Positions 31,261 through 51,615 of a stretch of DNA of 64,000 nt are shown here, piece by piece; within the stretch, counting starts at the first letter, position 1; each line of letters begins with the position of its first letter. The stretch lies in NCBI GenBank assembly GCA_944392585.1, contig CALXXA010000028.1:521-64520 (forward strand), given 5' to 3'. This DNA is from an uncultured Alphaproteobacteria bacterium. GTDB lineage: Bacteria; Pseudomonadota; Alphaproteobacteria; CAAHEQ01; UBA3637. The notes under the pieces were generated by a model. The model did not search any database, was not told the origin of the DNA, and saw nothing but the letters and a program-made list of their open reading frames with translations. The translations under genes were made by a program, and so were the position numbers.

Positions 31261-32400
31261 ATGTTTAAAGTATCTCATTGGATTGCTGATGAAGAAGCTT
31301 TTATGACTAAATTATCTGCTTTTTGGGATTTTTTGCTTGTTGCAATAGTCATCTCTTTCGTGTCTTTTAACCAAGATATTGAATATGATGAAAATATGAA
31401 AAATATTCTTTTATTTTGCGGAACCTTGTCAATCTTTTACCTTTTATACCGTATGATTCGACGCTTTTCGGCGTTGTTAAACGAACCTTATCTTGATTTT
31501 GAAGGGCGGCAGCAACAAAAAAAACAATCTTTACCTTTACGGTATTTAATAAATTCTTTATTTGTTTTTTGTGCGTTTTTAATTCTGATTGACTTATTTA
31601 AAGTCAATTTCCAATTTATAAATCATTTGTCCAGAGGCTTTACCTTTGCCGGTCTTGTTATTTCTACGAGAACCCTTATCTTGGCAGGGTTTGTATTCTT
31701 ACTTGTTATGACTGTCACGCGTATCATTCAAAAAATAACTCTGGAGAAATTACAAGATTATGTCGAAATGGGAATTACCTTTAAGAATTCATTAATACGG
31801 AGCCAAGGATTTTTAGGATTAACTTTTGCATATTGCGGATTATTTGCTATGTTGGGGGCGAATATTCTACCATTTATTTTGTTGCTGGCCGCTTTGTTTA
31901 TAGGTTTGTGTTTCGGTCTGAAAGACACGATTCAAAACTTTGTCTCCGGAATGCAAATTCTTTGGACAAGATCTATTAAAATAGGAGATTGGATCGTTTT
32001 AGATGGGGCAGAAGGGTTTGTTAAGCGTATAACCTTATGCTCTACGGAGATAGAAACTTTAAATAAAGCATCCGTGATTTTTCCAAATATAGATATTACA
32101 ACAAAAAAAATAGTTAATTGGACTCATGAAGATTCCATAGGAAGAATAGATATAAAAATAACAATCCCTTTCGGTGTAAAAATGAAAAAAATTAGAGATA
32201 TTATGTTGAATGTAGCAAACAGCCATCCCAGTGTTTTAGAAGATCCTGCTCCGTCTGTCGTTGTCTCGGATATCCGACAGGACTATACAAGTGTTGAATT
32301 AAGATGTTTTATCCCGAATAAAGTTCAACGCTTTTCTATTGCGAATACTTTACGAGAAGAAATTTATGATGCTCTTGTAAAAGCCAAAATTAAGGCTTAG
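31261..32400 (+). CDS. MscS-family mechanosensitive channel protein
   Basis: 379 aa. Multiple TM helices and the MscS beta-domain. Confidence 0.7.
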   Translation: MFKVSHWIADEEAFMTKLSAFWDFLLVAIVISFVSFNQDIEYDENMKNILLFCGTLSIFYLLYRMIRRFSALLNEPYLDFEGRQQQKKQSLPLRYLINSLFVFCAFLILIDLFKVNFQFINHLSRGFTFAGLVISTRTLILAGFVFLLVMTVTRIIQKITLEKLQDYVEMGITFKNSLIRSQGFLGLTFAYCGLFAMLGANILPFILLLAALFIGLCFGLKDTIQNFVSGMQILWTRSIKIGDWIVLDGAEGFVKRITLCSTEIETLNKASVIFPNIDITTKKIVNWTHEDSIGRIDIKITIPFGVKMKKIRDIMLNVANSHPSVLEDPAPSVVVSDIRQDYTSVELRCFIPNKVQRFSIANTLREEIYDALVKAKIKA

Positions 32401-32698
32401 TTTTTTCTGAACATCTGAAAATAGCTGTGTTCGGGGTTAATAACGTGCAATTAAAATAGCGCGTTTCTATACGTTGTGCTGGCTTTTTTGTCTTGGAACA
32501 TGCTGCGTTAGCTAAGTTTTGTAATCCAATCTCATCACTGACTAATCCATTGTAGCAAACGGCTATCAAAGGGGGGCGGGATTGTCCGACAAGATGAGCA
32601 ACTCCAGCTTCTCTTCTGGAGTCTATGTACGGGCTGCAGCCGATTAATAAAAAAAGAGTGGGAATAAGTGAAAAAAAACATTTCATAATACTGGACAA
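32390..32698 (-). CDS. Putative small lipoprotein
   Basis: 102 aa. Signal peptide with lipobox 'LLIGC'. Overlaps the mscS stop by 11 bp. Confidence 0.35.
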   Translation of the reverse strand: MSSIMKCFFSLIPTLFLLIGCSPYIDSRREAGVAHLVGQSRPPLIAVCYNGLVSDEIGLQNLANAACSKTKKPAQRIETRYFNCTLLTPNTAIFRCSEKTKP

Positions 32699-32780: not shown

Positions 32781-33794
32781 ATGGAAAAAAAATATAGACT
32801 TCTCACACGAGATGACTTTGATGGGTTGGTGTGTGCCATTCTGTTAAAAAAATTAGATTTGGTTGATGATATTGTGTTCGTTCATCCAAGAGACGTGCAA
32901 CATAACAGAGTCTCCGTCTCCGCAAGAGATATTTCTGCTAATCTGCCGTATGTCCCCGGTGTTTACATGGCGTTTGATCATCATCCTCCGGAAAATAAGC
33001 AGGCAATATCATATACAAATTTTGTTTGTTCCCCGAAGGCTCCTTCTACGGCACAGGTCATTTATGATTTCTTTAATATGGAAGAAAAGTTCCCGAACGT
33101 TTTTGATGAAATTCTTCACGCTCTTAATAAAGCAGATACAGCCGATTTTTCTCAGCAGGATATTTTGGACTCTCAAGGATGGGCTTTGTTTAACTTTATT
33201 TTAGATCCTAAAACAGGCTTTACTCGTTTCCATGATTTTCAAACACAACATGAAGATCTTGTACGTTTATTGATTAATTCTATTGAAGGGATGTCTATCA
33301 ACGATATTTTAAATATGCCGGATATACAAGAACGGGTAATGCTTTATAGAACATATCAAAATCATTTTAAGGATCAAATCGAAAGATGTGCAACCGTTTT
33401 CCAAAACTTAGTCGTCGTTGATTTACGTGATGAGGAAATTATTTATCCGGGGAATCGTTTTTTAGTATATGCTCTTTATCCAAATTGTAATTTGTCTTTA
33501 ATGATCGAAAAAGATGTTAAATCAGAACGAATTACATTTTCTCTTGGAAGATCTATTTTAAATAAATCGTCCAAAGTGAACGCAGGAGCAATAATGGCAC
33601 TGTACAACGGGGGAGGACATACAAAGGCAGGGACTTGTCAAAGCTCTATTTTTGATGTAGAAAAAGTAAAAATGGATCTAATCGCGGCTATTTTGATGGC
33701 CTCCAAAAAAACGGACAAGGGAGAGCAAATAAATGAATATTCACGAGTATCAAGCGAAAAAAATATTCAGCCAGTATGGAATTCCAATTCTTAA
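32781..33794 (+). CDS. DHH-family phosphoesterase (NrnA-like)
   Basis: 337 aa. DHH motif 'MAFDHHP' and N-terminal 'DFDGLVCAILL' (DxD). Confidence 0.65.
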   Translation: MEKKYRLLTRDDFDGLVCAILLKKLDLVDDIVFVHPRDVQHNRVSVSARDISANLPYVPGVYMAFDHHPPENKQAISYTNFVCSPKAPSTAQVIYDFFNMEEKFPNVFDEILHALNKADTADFSQQDILDSQGWALFNFILDPKTGFTRFHDFQTQHEDLVRLLINSIEGMSINDILNMPDIQERVMLYRTYQNHFKDQIERCATVFQNLVVVDLRDEEIIYPGNRFLVYALYPNCNLSLMIEKDVKSERITFSLGRSILNKSSKVNAGAIMALYNGGGHTKAGTCQSSIFDVEKVKMDLIAAILMASKKTDKGEQINEYSRVSSEKNIQPVWNSNS

Positions 33795-34911
33795 AGGATG
33801 TATTGCTTATACGTCTCAGGAAGCTTATCGCTGTACGGATAAAATTGGGGGAAACAAGTGGGTTGTTAAAGCTCAAATACACTCTAATGCCAGAGGAAAT
33901 GGAAGTTTTATCGAAGCTCAAGCCGGGACCGGAGGAGGTATCCGCTTCGTTTCTTCCGCAGAGGAAGCCGCTAAAGAAGTTGATAAAATGTTGGGGAGGA
34001 CTTTAGTAACTGTTTCTACCGGTTCGGGAGGGCAAGAAGTTAAAAAAGTTTATATAGAGGAATATGTGGATATTTCTTTGGCGTATGCTTTAAGCATCTA
34101 TATTGATTTTAGCGTGGAAAAAGTTTTTTTGTCTCTCTCGGAAGTCAAAGAGGGCGCTAAAGAATGCCGTCCTTCTTTAAATGAATTGGATATTAATAAA
34201 AAAATGACACTTCTTGGAGCTAAAAAATTTGTGAAAAAAATAAAAATTCCTCCAAAACATGTGACAATGGTTGCTGAGATTATACAGAAAATGTATGAAA
34301 TCTTTAAAACATATTCTGCTTTTAGAATCGAGATCAATCCATTGGTTATTACTTCCGAAAATAAATTGTTTGCTTTAGATGGGAAAATTACTTTTGATCC
34401 AGATTCCGTTGGAAAGTATAAAGAAATTACCTGTATGCGAGATGTGGAAGAGGAAACTCCGAGCCAAATTAAAGCTCGTTTAAATAATTTCAGGTATATC
34501 AAACTTAAAGGAAACATCGGATGTATTATTAATGGATCTGGACTTGGGATGGCTACGTTGGACTTAATTCATCTCTATGGCGGAAAACCGGCGTGTATTT
34601 TGGATTTAGGAGGAGAACCAACAAAAGAAACGGTGACAAATGCTTTTAAATCTATTTTATCAGAACCTGATGTAGAAGGTGTTTTGATTAATATCTTTGG
34701 AGGTTCTTCCAGATGCGACATTATAGCAGAGGGATTAATCGCGGCTTCTCGCGAAATTAGCATTGGAATGCCGTTGGTTGTTCGAATGGATGGAACAAAT
34801 GCTCAAATAGGATCTCGATTGTTGTTTGAATCAGGATTGCCTTTTACAGTTAAACAAAGTATGGATGAAGCAGTGCGTGTGATAATTCAATCTATTCAGG
34901 AGATTGTCTAA
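33733..34911 (+). CDS. sucC: Succinyl-CoA synthetase beta-subunit homolog (ATP-grasp), divergent
   Basis: 392 aa. 'MNIHEYQAKKIF' and 'GNIGCIINGSGLGMATLD' are conserved. The ATP-grasp loop 'HAGGRGKAGG' reads 'HSNARGNGS' with an insertion. Overlaps the upstream gene by 62 bp. Confidence 0.8.
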   Translation: MNIHEYQAKKIFSQYGIPILKGCIAYTSQEAYRCTDKIGGNKWVVKAQIHSNARGNGSFIEAQAGTGGGIRFVSSAEEAAKEVDKMLGRTLVTVSTGSGGQEVKKVYIEEYVDISLAYALSIYIDFSVEKVFLSLSEVKEGAKECRPSLNELDINKKMTLLGAKKFVKKIKIPPKHVTMVAEIIQKMYEIFKTYSAFRIEINPLVITSENKLFALDGKITFDPDSVGKYKEITCMRDVEEETPSQIKARLNNFRYIKLKGNIGCIINGSGLGMATLDLIHLYGGKPACILDLGGEPTKETVTNAFKSILSEPDVEGVLINIFGGSSRCDIIAEGLIAASREISIGMPLVVRMDGTNAQIGSRLLFESGLPFTVKQSMDEAVRVIIQSIQEIV

Positions 34912-35807
34912 TGAGTATATTAGGAGATGAAAAAACACGTGTTATTTGTCAGGGAATTTTAACGCCGGAAGGGTTGAAACATACAGAACAAGCGTTGGCC
35001 TATGGGACAAACATTGTCGGAGGTGTTGCCAAAGAGAAAAAAGGAGGACAAATTTTCGGTGTTCCTCTTTATCACTCTGTTAAAGAGGCGGTAAAAGAAC
35101 AAAATCCGGATGTTAGTGTGATTTATACAACTCCTTTACAAGCAGCAGAAGAGATTATGGATGCGATAAGGGCTCAAGTTCCTTTGATTGTCTGCACGAC
35201 TGAACGTGTCCCTGTACAAGATATATTGAAAATCAGGAGCGTTTTGAAAAATTCAAAAAGTCGCTTAATTGGACCGGCTTCTCAAGGAATTATTACGGCG
35301 GGGGCTTGTAAAATAGGAACGATGCCGGCTCATTTGTTCCAAAAAGGGAATGTCGGGATTATGTCTAGATCCAGCTCCGTAATGTATGAAGCTCTGCAAC
35401 AACTTCATAATAAAGGACTGGGAGTGACAACTTGCGTCGCTTTGGGAGCTTACCCTATATTAGGAACTTCTTTTAATGATATTTTAGATTTGTTCTTGAA
35501 AGATAAGCAAACAGAAGCTATTTTATTAATAGGAGAAATAGGGGGATCTTTTGAACAAGATTTAGCAGAGTATTATCTCCAAAAAACAAATAAGAAACCT
35601 TTAATAAGTTATGTGGTGGGGAGTTTCGTCCCTCTTAAAACGTATATGGGAAATATTGGAGCCATTGTCAGTAAAAAAACAGAAACAGCTTCTTTTAAAA
35701 AAGAAATATTGAAAAAATCAGGCTCTATTATTGTTGATTCTCCAGTTCAAATCGGAGATGCTGTCTTTAAGACTTTAATACAACAAACATCAAAGAGTAA
35801 AAAATGA
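34911..35807 (+). CDS. sucD: Succinyl-CoA synthetase alpha-subunit homolog lacking the catalytic His (GHAGA to GNIGA) and the GxTGxxG CoA motif
   Basis: 298 aa. Aligns along its full length to SucD. 'VICQGILTPEGLKH' replaces 'VICQGFTGSQGTFH', and 'YMGNIGAIV' replaces 'RMGHAGAII'. Confidence 0.75.
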   Translation: MSILGDEKTRVICQGILTPEGLKHTEQALAYGTNIVGGVAKEKKGGQIFGVPLYHSVKEAVKEQNPDVSVIYTTPLQAAEEIMDAIRAQVPLIVCTTERVPVQDILKIRSVLKNSKSRLIGPASQGIITAGACKIGTMPAHLFQKGNVGIMSRSSSVMYEALQQLHNKGLGVTTCVALGAYPILGTSFNDILDLFLKDKQTEAILLIGEIGGSFEQDLAEYYLQKTNKKPLISYVVGSFVPLKTYMGNIGAIVSKKTETASFKKEILKKSGSIIVDSPVQIGDAVFKTLIQQTSKSKK

Positions 35808-36358
35808 ATATAGAGTTAACAAATTTAATTTATACGCGAATCAGTCATGATTTATCAAATCCGGCAGGAGCTCTTTATAACGGAGTAGAGTTGTTGTCCG
35901 AAAATGTTTCGGATCTTCAGGAAATGACCATCCTTTTGCAAAATAGTGCAACGGTTCTAATGGCAAGGTTGAAATTTTTTAGACAGGCTTTCGGTCTTCA
36001 AAATGTAACTTCTGAGGACGCAACGCAAGATTATTTGGCTTCATTATCTTCTCCGGTCCGTTTGGTCGGCGTTTGTTTGGATCCGTTGTCAAAAGTTTGT
36101 GCTATGGTTCTGGCAGATTGTTTAATTCGAGGCGGAACCATCACTGTAAAAGAAAATGAAATTACTGCTTATGGCGATAATATAAAAAGCCTCCCGAATT
36201 TAAAGGAAATTTTAGAAAAAGGAGAAAATGTTTCTGTTCCCGCGTTGGCGCCGGCTTATTATGCATTCTATTTAGCAAAAAGACAAAATTTAAAACTTTC
36301 TTTTTCCTATGATGTTCAAAGAAATTTTATTTCTTTAAAAAAAGTTGTGTTTTCTTAA
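35804..36358 (+). CDS. chpT: ChpT-like histidine phosphotransferase
   Basis: 184 aa. 'RISHDLSNPAGALYNGVELL' is the ChpT/HPTransfase H-box-like motif. Confidence 0.55.
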   Translation: MNIELTNLIYTRISHDLSNPAGALYNGVELLSENVSDLQEMTILLQNSATVLMARLKFFRQAFGLQNVTSEDATQDYLASLSSPVRLVGVCLDPLSKVCAMVLADCLIRGGTITVKENEITAYGDNIKSLPNLKEILEKGENVSVPALAPAYYAFYLAKRQNLKLSFSYDVQRNFISLKKVVFS

Positions 36359-36385: not shown

Positions 36386-36748
36386 ATGAAAATGAAAAAA
36401 GCTCTTATTATCGAAAAGGCGCCTCACATCGCTGCTATTACAAAAAAAATGCTCGAGGATTTAGGGTTTATCGGGGTTATTGTCAATAATAAAGATGATG
36501 TTCTCCCGACTTGTGAAACAGAACAACCGGATCTGGTTATAATGGGGTATTCCACCTGTCAAGAAAGTAGTGCCGTATTTATTCCTAAAATGAAAAAAAT
36601 TTGCCAGCCGCAGATTATCTTTTGCTCTTCAAACTCTGAACCCGATAAAATTAAAGAGGCTCTGGATAGCGGGGTGGATGAATATATTATGAAGCCTTTT
36701 GATCATGATATCTTACAAAGTAAAATTTCTATGGTCGGTTTGTTATAA
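36386..36748 (+). CDS. Single-domain response-regulator receiver lacking the phospho-acceptor Asp (pseudo-receiver)
   Basis: 120 aa. CheY-like fold with conserved K ('YIMKPF') and S/T. The acidic pocket DD reads EK, and the D57-equivalent position after β3 'DLVIM' is Gly. Confidence 0.55.
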   Translation: MKMKKALIIEKAPHIAAITKKMLEDLGFIGVIVNNKDDVLPTCETEQPDLVIMGYSTCQESSAVFIPKMKKICQPQIIFCSSNSEPDKIKEALDSGVDEYIMKPFDHDILQSKISMVGLL

Positions 36749-36760
36749 GAGGTCCCTAAT

Positions 36761-37642
36761 ATGATTCCGAATGATTTTTATTTTATCGCCCAAATCCTTA
36801 AAGAACGTTCCGGCTTTTCTTTAACCGCGGATCAAATATATTTATTGGAAAGTAGGTTGAGTCCGATTATTCGTCAGAATAATCTAATTAGTTTGGAGGA
36901 TTTAATTAATTCTTTGAAGCTTAACAATAAAGAATTAAAGGAAGCTGTTATCGAGGCCGTAAGTATTAATAATACGAGGTTCTTTAGAAATACATATGCT
37001 TTTCAGACTATTAAAGAGTTCTTGCAAGATCTTTTAAAGAAAGATGCACAAAAGAAAAATTTTAAGATCTTATCCGCTGGGTGTGCCAGTGGGCAAGAAC
37101 CTGTTTCTATCGCGATCTTATTAAAAGAAATGAATCTTCCAAAAGATATTCGAATAGATATTTTTGCGCTTGATATGTCGCATCATATTATAGATCGTGC
37201 TAAAAAAGGCATCTATACTCATTACGAAGTGCAAAAAGGACTTCCGATCAGATTTTTGCTGAAATATTTTACGCATTTGGAAGAAGCATGGCAGCTCCAT
37301 CCGGAGATTATGCAATTAATTCATTATCATGTTCATAACATTATGGATCTCTTTTATGAACAAAATTTTGATATAATATTGTGTAGAAACATGCTCTCTT
37401 ATATGACAGATGAGGCTCAGAAAAAAGCGGTACAGAATCTTCGAGAGATTCTATCTCCGGAAGGTTTGTTAATTGTCGGAGCTTCTGAAACACTGCATCA
37501 AATGGAAGGATTCGAAAAAGTTCCGGATCGTGTCGGATGTTATCAAATTAAACAGATTGATAAAAAATTGGAAACTGTCCCTAAAACAGCATGGACAATT
37601 ATTAAAAAACCTTTATTTAAACCGGCTGTCCCTAAGAAATAA
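36761..37642 (+). CDS. CheR-family SAM-dependent protein-glutamate methyltransferase, orphan
   Basis: 293 aa. 'ILSAGCASGQEPVSIAILL' matches the CheR SAM-binding motif. No other che genes are in the window. Confidence 0.7.
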   Translation: MIPNDFYFIAQILKERSGFSLTADQIYLLESRLSPIIRQNNLISLEDLINSLKLNNKELKEAVIEAVSINNTRFFRNTYAFQTIKEFLQDLLKKDAQKKNFKILSAGCASGQEPVSIAILLKEMNLPKDIRIDIFALDMSHHIIDRAKKGIYTHYEVQKGLPIRFLLKYFTHLEEAWQLHPEIMQLIHYHVHNIMDLFYEQNFDIILCRNMLSYMTDEAQKKAVQNLREILSPEGLLIVGASETLHQMEGFEKVPDRVGCYQIKQIDKKLETVPKTAWTIIKKPLFKPAVPKK

Positions 37643-49422: not shown

Positions 49423-51615
49423 TTACCGGAGGACTTCGCGGACTTTTTGTGTTAATTGAGACAAGCTAAAAGGTTTGGGAAGGAAAGAGAAAGTTTGAGA
49501 ATCATCTTTCCCATGTCTGGCGAAGTCTTGAGAATAGCCGCTCATTAAAATGACTCGGATATTAGGATATCGATTTTTAGCAAGTTCAGCAAGCGTTTCT
49601 CCATCCATTCCAGGCATCATCATATCGGTTAGCAGTAAATCAAAAGGTCCGTTTTCTTCCATTTTTTTGAGAGCCTGTTCTCCGTCGGAACATTCTGTTA
49701 CGGTAAATCCTTTATTTTTAAGGACACGCGAACTAAAAGCACGAACAGCATCTTCGTCTTCTACCAGTAAAATTTTTGCGGAGCTTGTCGGAAAAGTATG
49801 AATGATTGTATTTTTCTGATCCGGCTCTTTTGATGCTTGCGTGAAGCGAGGTAAGTAAATAGTGAAAGTCGTTCCTTTTCCTAAAGAACTTTCCACTTGA
49901 ATATATCCGTCTGTTTGAGTAATGATTCCATAAACGGTTGATAATCCCAGACCTGTTCCAGAACCGGCGATTCCTTCTTTTGTCGAGAAGAAAGGTTCGA
50001 ATATACGAGATAAATTTTCTTGAGAGATACCGCATCCTGTATCAGTGACTGTAATAACGATATAAGTTCCCGGTATCATGATATCAGATCCGACGGTCCT
50101 TGTTTTTTTAAATGTTTCAACTTTGCTTTTGATTGTTAAAGATCCTCCATTCGGCATAGCGTCTCTTGCGTTGACGGCTAAGTTTAAAAAAACTTGGGTT
50201 AATTGATTAGGATCTACTTTAACGAAACCTAATTCCGGCGCATGTTGTGTTTTGAGCTCTATTTTAGGTCCGATACTGCGATGTAAAAGAGCCGTTAATT
50301 CCGAGAAAGCATCAGCAATATCTATAAGGCGAGGTTTTAAAGGTTGTTTTCTTGAAAAAGCGAGTAATTGACCAACTAAAGCAGAGGCTCTGTTTGCATT
50401 ATGCTTTATTTGCATAATATCGGCAAAAGAAGGATCTCCCATAGTATGTTTTTGTAAAAGTAGATCCGAAAAGCCGATAATTGCTGTCAACAAGTTGTTA
50501 AAATCATGAGCGACACCTCCGGCTAATTGCCCCATAGCCTGCATTTTTTGAGCGTGTGCCATTTGCATTTCCAGATTTTTTCGTTCAGATGAGTCGGTTA
50601 AATACAAAATGAAAGAGGAAACATCTGTCTCCTCAAGCCCGTTCATCTTAGGTTGTATAGGAGCTATAAATGCAATGGCGCTTCGTGTTTGCCCGTGAGG
50701 GAAAATAAAATTTAATTCGCATTTTTCAAATTTTTGAGCTTTCATTAGAAGCTTTGATAGCTTAAGCGGTAATGTTTCTTTGCTTTCTGTGTCAATAAAA
50801 GATAAAAAAGATTGGTCTTTTATTTGTTCAAATGGCAATGCCATCATCTTTTGAAAAGCTATATTCGCTTCTAAAACGGATAAATCCATTGCATCAATAA
50901 CGACCATTCCTAAAGGAGCATTTTGGAAAAAATCCGGAAATCCATCCGTATGGAATGAAGAGGTCGACGGAGAATCTTCTTCTTTAATGACAATGCTTTG
51001 GAACATTGTTTTCCCATCTTGATCAAAAGATGTTTGATAGACTTTGGCTGGGAAGGTCTTTTTCCCCGATTTAAATAAAACGCTTCCGCTCCAAGCTCCA
51101 TTCATATCAGGAAGTAATCCTTTGATGATTTCTTGTAAATGACGACCTTTAATATCTTCTTGTTTTTTATCCGTCCAATGAGATAATACGTCATTCATAA
51201 ACTGAACGCATCCTTCTGAATCAACAATATAAAGTCCGACGGGAAGTGTATCAATCGATTCTTGTAAAGTCGCTTGTTCTTGTCGAATTAAAGATTGAAT
51301 GACAACGGTGTCTGTTAAATCTTCTCCTATTAAAAGAAAATCTTTATTTACTTTCTTGAGCGTTATTTTATATGTTTTTTCTTCAACTTCTATTTGAACG
51401 CTTAAAGGACATCTTTGCATATAAGCGCTTTTGAGCTTTTCCAAAACGTTTTGTTGCGTTGTTTCTTTTAAAAAAAGAAAAGGATCTGTTCCTTCTTTAA
51501 AAAGTTGACGCCCTTTTTTGTTGGAAACCAAAACACGGCCATGGCTGGAGCGAAGTTGGCGCGCATCCGATTCTGTGTCTAGCAACGCTTGAAGAGCTTT
51601 GTTTTTCCCAATCAT
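49423..51615 (-). CDS. Hybrid sensor histidine kinase/response regulator (PAS-PAS-HisKA-HATPase-REC), CckA-like, apparently soluble
   Basis: 730 aa. H-box 'GVAHDFNNLLTAI', G2 box 'GTGLGLS', receiver 'LLLTDMMMPGMDG'. No N-terminal TM segment is evident. Confidence 0.8.
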   Translation of the reverse strand: MIGKNKALQALLDTESDARQLRSSHGRVLVSNKKGRQLFKEGTDPFLFLKETTQQNVLEKLKSAYMQRCPLSVQIEVEEKTYKITLKKVNKDFLLIGEDLTDTVVIQSLIRQEQATLQESIDTLPVGLYIVDSEGCVQFMNDVLSHWTDKKQEDIKGRHLQEIIKGLLPDMNGAWSGSVLFKSGKKTFPAKVYQTSFDQDGKTMFQSIVIKEEDSPSTSSFHTDGFPDFFQNAPLGMVVIDAMDLSVLEANIAFQKMMALPFEQIKDQSFLSFIDTESKETLPLKLSKLLMKAQKFEKCELNFIFPHGQTRSAIAFIAPIQPKMNGLEETDVSSFILYLTDSSERKNLEMQMAHAQKMQAMGQLAGGVAHDFNNLLTAIIGFSDLLLQKHTMGDPSFADIMQIKHNANRASALVGQLLAFSRKQPLKPRLIDIADAFSELTALLHRSIGPKIELKTQHAPELGFVKVDPNQLTQVFLNLAVNARDAMPNGGSLTIKSKVETFKKTRTVGSDIMIPGTYIVITVTDTGCGISQENLSRIFEPFFSTKEGIAGSGTGLGLSTVYGIITQTDGYIQVESSLGKGTTFTIYLPRFTQASKEPDQKNTIIHTFPTSSAKILLVEDEDAVRAFSSRVLKNKGFTVTECSDGEQALKKMEENGPFDLLLTDMMMPGMDGETLAELAKNRYPNIRVILMSGYSQDFARHGKDDSQTFSFLPKPFSLSQLTQKVREVLR

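Follow-up and report, generated by a model that had tools for sequence, protein, structure and literature searches.

An alpha subunit without the phospho-carrier histidine

Does a succinyl-CoA synthetase (SCS) that has lost its phospho-carrier histidine remain an enzyme, decay, or take on another role? The ACD/SCS mechanism needs the histidine of a swinging loop, and no member of the superfamily is known to function without it (PMC11494057). The question is raised by SucC'D', an alpha/beta pair encoded at positions 33733-35807 of the 64,000-nucleotide stretch of DNA analyzed here (the window), from an uncultured Alphaproteobacteria bacterium. The catalytic histidine of SCS alpha has been treated as universal, and the clade to which SucD' belongs departs from this rule.

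The gene sucD' (34911-35807, + strand) encodes a 298-residue alpha-like subunit with the Pfam domains CoA_binding and Ligase_CoA, of which residues 6-289 align with pig SCS alpha (E 1e-73) and residues 2-289 with E. coli SCS alpha (E 1e-67). With the ORFs located, these alignments bear out the coordinates and the end-to-end SucD homology proposed in a first-pass annotation of this DNA, together with the two motif changes it had reported in alpha, GHAGA to GNIGA and QGFTGSQG to QGILTPEG. His246 of E. coli alpha, the phospho-carrier, is Asn248 in SucD' (codon AAT, 35652-35654), located in a catalytic loop that changes from MGHAGAI to MGNIGAI without a gap and holds no other histidine. A local misalignment masking a histidine was rejected, since three alignment methods are concordant and Asn stays in the histidine column in every core-clade member (MAFFT and hmmalign, more than 100 homologues). 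Sequencing or assembly error was likewise rejected, as 15 independent contigs, drawn from NCBI, ENA and Logan assemblies, encode an identical SucD' protein and the motif recurs in ~40 protein clusters.

The CoA-binding loops of SucD' are rewritten as well (34950-34973, 35196-35213 and 35271-35288), the first of these carrying the QGFTGxQG to QGILTPEG change. Not listed in the first-pass annotation are TEGIP to TERVP, GPNCPG to GPASQG, an altered power-helix tip (SRSGTLTYE to SRSSSVMYE, 35364-35390) and GIGGDP to ALGAYP (GAYP at 35442-35456); two further loops read AKEKK for PGKG and YTT for YVP. Clade-wide, all CoA-binding loops of alpha are switched or relaxed. GEIGG, with Glu208 of alpha, is retained (35532-35546), and so is the fold in an AF2 model (pLDDT 87, TM 0.91 to pig SCS alpha), in which Asn loop 247-250 has low confidence. 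SucD' falls below both curated NCBIfam/TIGRFAM alpha cut-offs (309.9 versus 336, and 308.2 versus 353.2). The His to Asn change, the rewritten CoA loops and these scores agree with the earlier proposal that a canonical phosphohistidine SCS reaction is unlikely, and the loss of canonical SCS catalysis in SucC'D' is well supported at the level of sequence.

The beta-like subunit, encoded by sucC' (33733-34911, + strand; 392 residues; Pfam ATP-grasp_2 and Ligase_CoA), matches E. coli SucC with E 2e-78 and scores above the PRK00696 cut-off (373.9 versus 370), below that of TIGR01016 (354.5 versus 375.55) and below that of the MtkA model (328.9 versus 604). Its Gly-rich loop is altered from HAGGRGKG to HSNARGNG (33880-33903), as had been noted, and the beta motif given earlier as GNIGC..NGAGLAM requires a small correction, the actual reading being GNIGCIINGSGLGMATLD. 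IEINPL and LDGK, both of which drift within the clade, are intact in the window copy, and since Lys46, Glu197, Asn199 and Asp213 are still present, the beta subunit of this species could still bind a nucleotide. Across the clade, beta G52, G53, E197, N199 and D213 are variable, a feature that had escaped the earlier reading, and one relative has a 350-residue SucC-like partner in which the Gly-loop region is deleted. Conservation of beta within the clade is 0.59 for the ATP-grasp domain versus 0.76 for the C-terminal domain, and the C-terminal IFGGxxRCD loop is retained.

Fixation and origin of the variant

Fixation of the substitutions extends across ~40 protein clusters and the loci of 17 species-representative genomes, the carriers being nearly all labeled uncultured gut or rumen Alphaproteobacteria. 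Fixed motifs in SucD' are QGILTPxGL, TERxP, GPAxxG, SRSSSxxYE, GAYP and YMGNI[GS]A, and almost no variation occurs in the mobile loop YMGNI[GS]AIV. Canonical SucD has 135 positions with conservation of 95% or higher; the clade retains 67 of them, has relaxed 55, and carries at the other 13 a replacement residue shared by 90% or more of its members, Arg99, Tyr181 and Asn248 among them. The CoA-adenine contacts P41, K43 and Y72-V73-P74 vary within the clade. Ratios of dN/dS are 0.03-0.07 for sucC' and 0.008-0.065 for sucD', the same as or below those of the neighboring genes. The first-pass annotation had described the pair as repurposed or decaying; clade-wide fixation and strong purifying selection support the first of these terms, and because dozens of related gut bacteria strictly conserve this rewritten form beside cell-cycle signaling genes, SucC'D' appears to be a repurposed rather than a dying gene pair. 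With its homology, its loss of essential residues and its purifying selection, SucC'D' is, as judged from sequence, a pseudoenzyme in the operational sense, and the clade offers a clean natural bacterial example in which one active site is newly fixed and the other drifts.

Within alphaproteobacterial SucD, the SucD' clade forms a monophyletic group with a long stem, and 60/60 bootstraps give it a single origin. Its 40 clusters lie at 56-85% identity, followed by a fall to 51% or less, and in an exhaustive profile search the highest-scoring canonical protein reached 325 bits, versus 499 bits for the clade representative. Identity to the closest canonical relatives does not exceed 51% for alpha and 45% for beta, and alpha is ~41-43% identical to solved SCS structures in fold-search alignments. 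The variant has in common with SucCD of the alphaproteobacterial/mitochondrial type (EC 6.2.1.5) its two-subunit, five-domain architecture and fold, overlapping sucC-sucD genes, Glu208 of alpha, both power helices and the beta IFGGxxRCD loop; unlike SucCD, it has no phosphohistidine, its CoA loops are rewritten and its beta nucleotide site is unconserved in the clade. The nearest canonical sucCD genes lie in an mdh-sucCD-sucAB-lpd operon, an arrangement that is typical though not strictly defining, whereas the variant lies outside any such operon. ATP-citrate lyase, citryl-CoA synthetase, malate-CoA ligase and ADP-forming acetyl-CoA synthetase have domains homologous to SucC'D' and all keep the catalytic histidine; their matches to SucD' are weaker (E 1e-13 to 1e-28), and SucC'D' is far nearer to SucCD than to any of them.

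A host-associated source, as earlier suggested, is supported by the gut and rumen MAG origin of related loci, by the anaerobe markers NrdD/NrdG in the window and by the lack of any TCA gene within its 64 kb. An Rfam scan of the window returned two tRNAs and no rRNA. SucC'D' also bears on why TCA-derived proteins may outlast the TCA cycle.

A neighborhood of phosphorelay genes

SucC'D' is embedded in a conserved cluster with the order pggH-sucC'-sucD'-chpT-REC-cheR, in which the neighbors are signaling genes and no metabolic genes are co-located. The first gene of this putative operon encodes a PggH-like DHH/DHHA1 phosphodiesterase (32781-33794, + strand) and overlaps sucC' by 62 nt in the window lineage; a profile of nine PggH-like orthologues matches PggH of PDB entry 7d62 (E 9e-120), and PggH is a pGpG hydrolase (PMC8861645). 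The TAA of sucC' overlaps the ATG of sucD' (TAATG), and the sucD' stop overlaps by 4 nt, as ATGA, the start of the next gene, a chpT-like histidine phosphotransferase gene (35804-36358, + strand; Pfam HPTransfase). Overlaps this tight are frequent in compact genomes, which counts against reading a functional link into them.

The phosphotransferase scores above the PF10090 cut-off (36.6 versus 22.9), and its best NCBIfam matches are ChpT models, with scores below cut-off (55 versus 240 and 41 versus 225) and a match restricted to the N-terminal helix region. Its H-box, SHDLS (35843-35857), has a histidine that is invariant in 15 orthologues, and the protein is a divergent ChpT. Downstream lie a single-domain receiver (REC; 36386-36748, + strand; Pfam Response_reg), in which the phospho-acceptor Asp is Gly in the window lineage (a pseudo-receiver) and Asp elsewhere, based on a CheY/DivK alignment, and a CheR-type methyltransferase (36761-37642, + strand; Pfam CheR_N and CheR) that closes the cluster. 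A small Cys-rich lipoprotein is divergently transcribed on the other side (32390-32698, - strand). Outside the cluster, 13 kb from the pair, the window encodes a CckA-like hybrid histidine kinase (49423-51615, - strand; PAS-HisKA-HATPase-REC by Pfam), whose best NCBIfam matches are CckA models (E 1e-157, below cut-off); it is the expected upstream partner of ChpT in the same pathway.

Almost every core-clade locus has chpT directly 3' of sucD', with a gap of -8 to +4 nt, and this junction is kept across lineages with rearranged outer flanks. In one sub-lineage (L009) a protein scoring above the CtrA cut-off adjoins chpT; a similar 229-residue regulator, a candidate CtrA, occupies the same position in L018, and in the more distant relatives L024/L025 a DivK-like gene precedes the pair by 19 nt. 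Pairwise-distance correlations are 0.94 for SucC'-SucD', 0.90 for SucC'-ChpT and 0.86 for SucD'-ChpT, and 0.68-0.80 with PggH, REC and CheR; this mirror-tree analysis comprises only 10 taxa with non-independent pairs and is weakly suggestive. No CtrA box (TTAA-N7-TTAA) is conserved across loci upstream of the operon, and a promoter/terminator scan gave counts no higher than shuffled expectation; its sole promoter candidate, TGGACA-18-CATGAT, lies in the divergent intergenic region and is conserved in several loci.

Function of the retooled pair

We hold with moderate confidence that SucC'D' is a pseudoenzyme with a retooled site I, one that may regulate the ChpT phosphorelay by binding a metabolite or a protein. 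The alpha and beta subunits, descended from the alphaproteobacterial TCA-cycle enzyme, presumably still form a heterodimer. Site II (the ATP-grasp site) would have become dispensable, while residues surrounding site I, at the interface of alpha with the beta C-terminal domain, are fixed in a new state. Site I would have lost its CoA and phosphohistidine chemistry and become a binding pocket, with its elements for binding anions (GEIGG, IFGGxxRCD and the two power-helix tips) preserved. A dispensable site II and a pocket at site I would together make SucC'D' a non-catalytic ligand- or partner-binding module. More speculatively, the module may feed metabolic information into the CckA-ChpT-CtrA cell-cycle phosphorelay, a link proposed because translation of the pair is coupled to that of chpT within a conserved cluster and ctrA or divK adjoins in other lineages; a regulatory role on ChpT is possible in light of this synteny. 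The coupling provides a concrete, testable hypothesis for communication between metabolism and the cell-cycle phosphorelay in Alphaproteobacteria.

Precedents exist for both parts of this proposal. In the PatZ/Pat type I/II GNATs, the SCS/ACD fold serves as a ligand-binding and allosteric module (bioRxiv 10.1101/2024.11.12.623305). PatZ joins this fold to a catalytic GNAT domain in one chain and still binds acetyl-CoA and ATP, whereas SucC'D' is a stand-alone alpha/beta pair in which a Pfam scan found no GNAT domain in either ORF and in which, unlike in PatZ, the CoA loops are degenerate. The suggested phosphorelay role would be analogous to that of the citrate synthase CitA of Caulobacter, which has a non-enzymatic role in the cell cycle and a genetically demonstrated link to the CtrA pathway (PMC7083601). 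CitA resembles SucC'D' in being a TCA-related protein, and the latter is surrounded by chpT, ctrA, divK and cckA; CitA is still an active enzyme, however, whereas SucC'D' appears to have lost catalysis and its proposed cell-cycle link comes from gene neighborhood. KidO and GdhZ are further metabolic enzymes that act non-enzymatically on the alphaproteobacterial cell cycle. Literature searches on SCS and ChpT, on SCS pseudoenzymes and on SCS catalytic-histidine paralogs yielded no relevant paper.

A more specific version of the regulatory reading, which we regard as doubtful, makes the former TCA heterodimer a cell-cycle regulator whose emptied phosphohistidine/anion pocket senses a ligand or docks the phosphohistidine of ChpT, thereby gating the essential CckA-ChpT-CtrA relay of anaerobic Alphaproteobacteria of the gut, in which the Krebs cycle may be missing. 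Candidate ligands would be nucleotide messengers and metabolites of the gut, for example succinate or phosphate; in the extreme case the ChpT histidine would supply the missing phospho-carrier in trans.

The primary function may instead have nothing to do with ChpT, since chpT adjacency is missing in sub-lineages L021/L023 and in the independent His-less lineages. SucC'D' would then be a non-catalytic protein, with for instance a structural or moonlighting interaction inherited from SCS, and the chpT neighborhood would be inherited gene order that means nothing for function. In L021/L023/L031 the only neighbor kept is the small lipoprotein, which is the most widely conserved neighbor of sucC'D' even in sub-lineages without chpT; other His-less SucCD-like pairs adjoin SUF or feoAB genes; and SucD is known from other complexes, the best fold-search match of the SucD' model being 9a6e, a GatB-SucD model. 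We nevertheless consider this unlikely, as the sucD'-chpT junction survives rearrangement of the outer flanks and two different cell-cycle regulators, ctrA and divK, adjoin in separate sub-lineages.

Rather unlikely, too, is a retooled enzyme in which site I runs another, phosphohistidine-free reaction (for instance a partial one with a dicarboxylate or acyl-phosphate as substrate, or one of the hydrolase or transferase type) and the ATP-grasp domain is only a scaffold. A new catalytic activity would account equally well for the fact that the new residues of site I and the flexible Asn loop are invariant. In its favor, too, are the 13 refixed positions of the former active-site region, the retained power-helix tips, GEIGG and IFGGxxRCD, and the very strong selection. 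Against it stand the superfamily's lack of any known His-less working member (PMC11494057), the variable CoA-adenine contacts, the signaling context, and L024/L025, which lack GEIGG and the entire loop motif.

That SucC'D' is a working synthetase for succinyl-CoA or another acyl-CoA, through a compensating residue or mechanism, is highly improbable. Homology is full-length, beta passes one NCBIfam equivalog cut-off and PGAP names relatives "succinate--CoA ligase", but the loop lacks any histidine, every CoA loop is changed, the beta Mg ligands and Glu197 are unconserved in the clade, alpha scores below both curated cut-offs, and substitutions of alpha His246 in E. coli are reportedly inactive. 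Metabolic reconstructions built on that automatic name would wrongly credit gut Alphaproteobacteria with the SCS step. Lastly, a TCA-cycle relic on its way to loss is scarcely credible: although the TCA cycle and respiration are missing from gut lineages of Alphaproteobacteria like Rs-D84 (PMC12306168), branches are long and sucC' is broken into two ORFs in the L007 assembly (probably an assembly or frameshift error, since L016, with the same SucD', lacks the split), the dN/dS values, the ORFs intact in ~40 clusters and 17 genomes, and the invariance of the substituted residues reject pseudogene decay.

In L024/L025, the histidine position is occupied by Leu or other residues. The profile search also returned other SucD lineages, apparently independent, with Tyr, Gln, Lys or Leu at this position, and loss of the catalytic histidine from SucD may thus be a recurrent and so far undescribed event.

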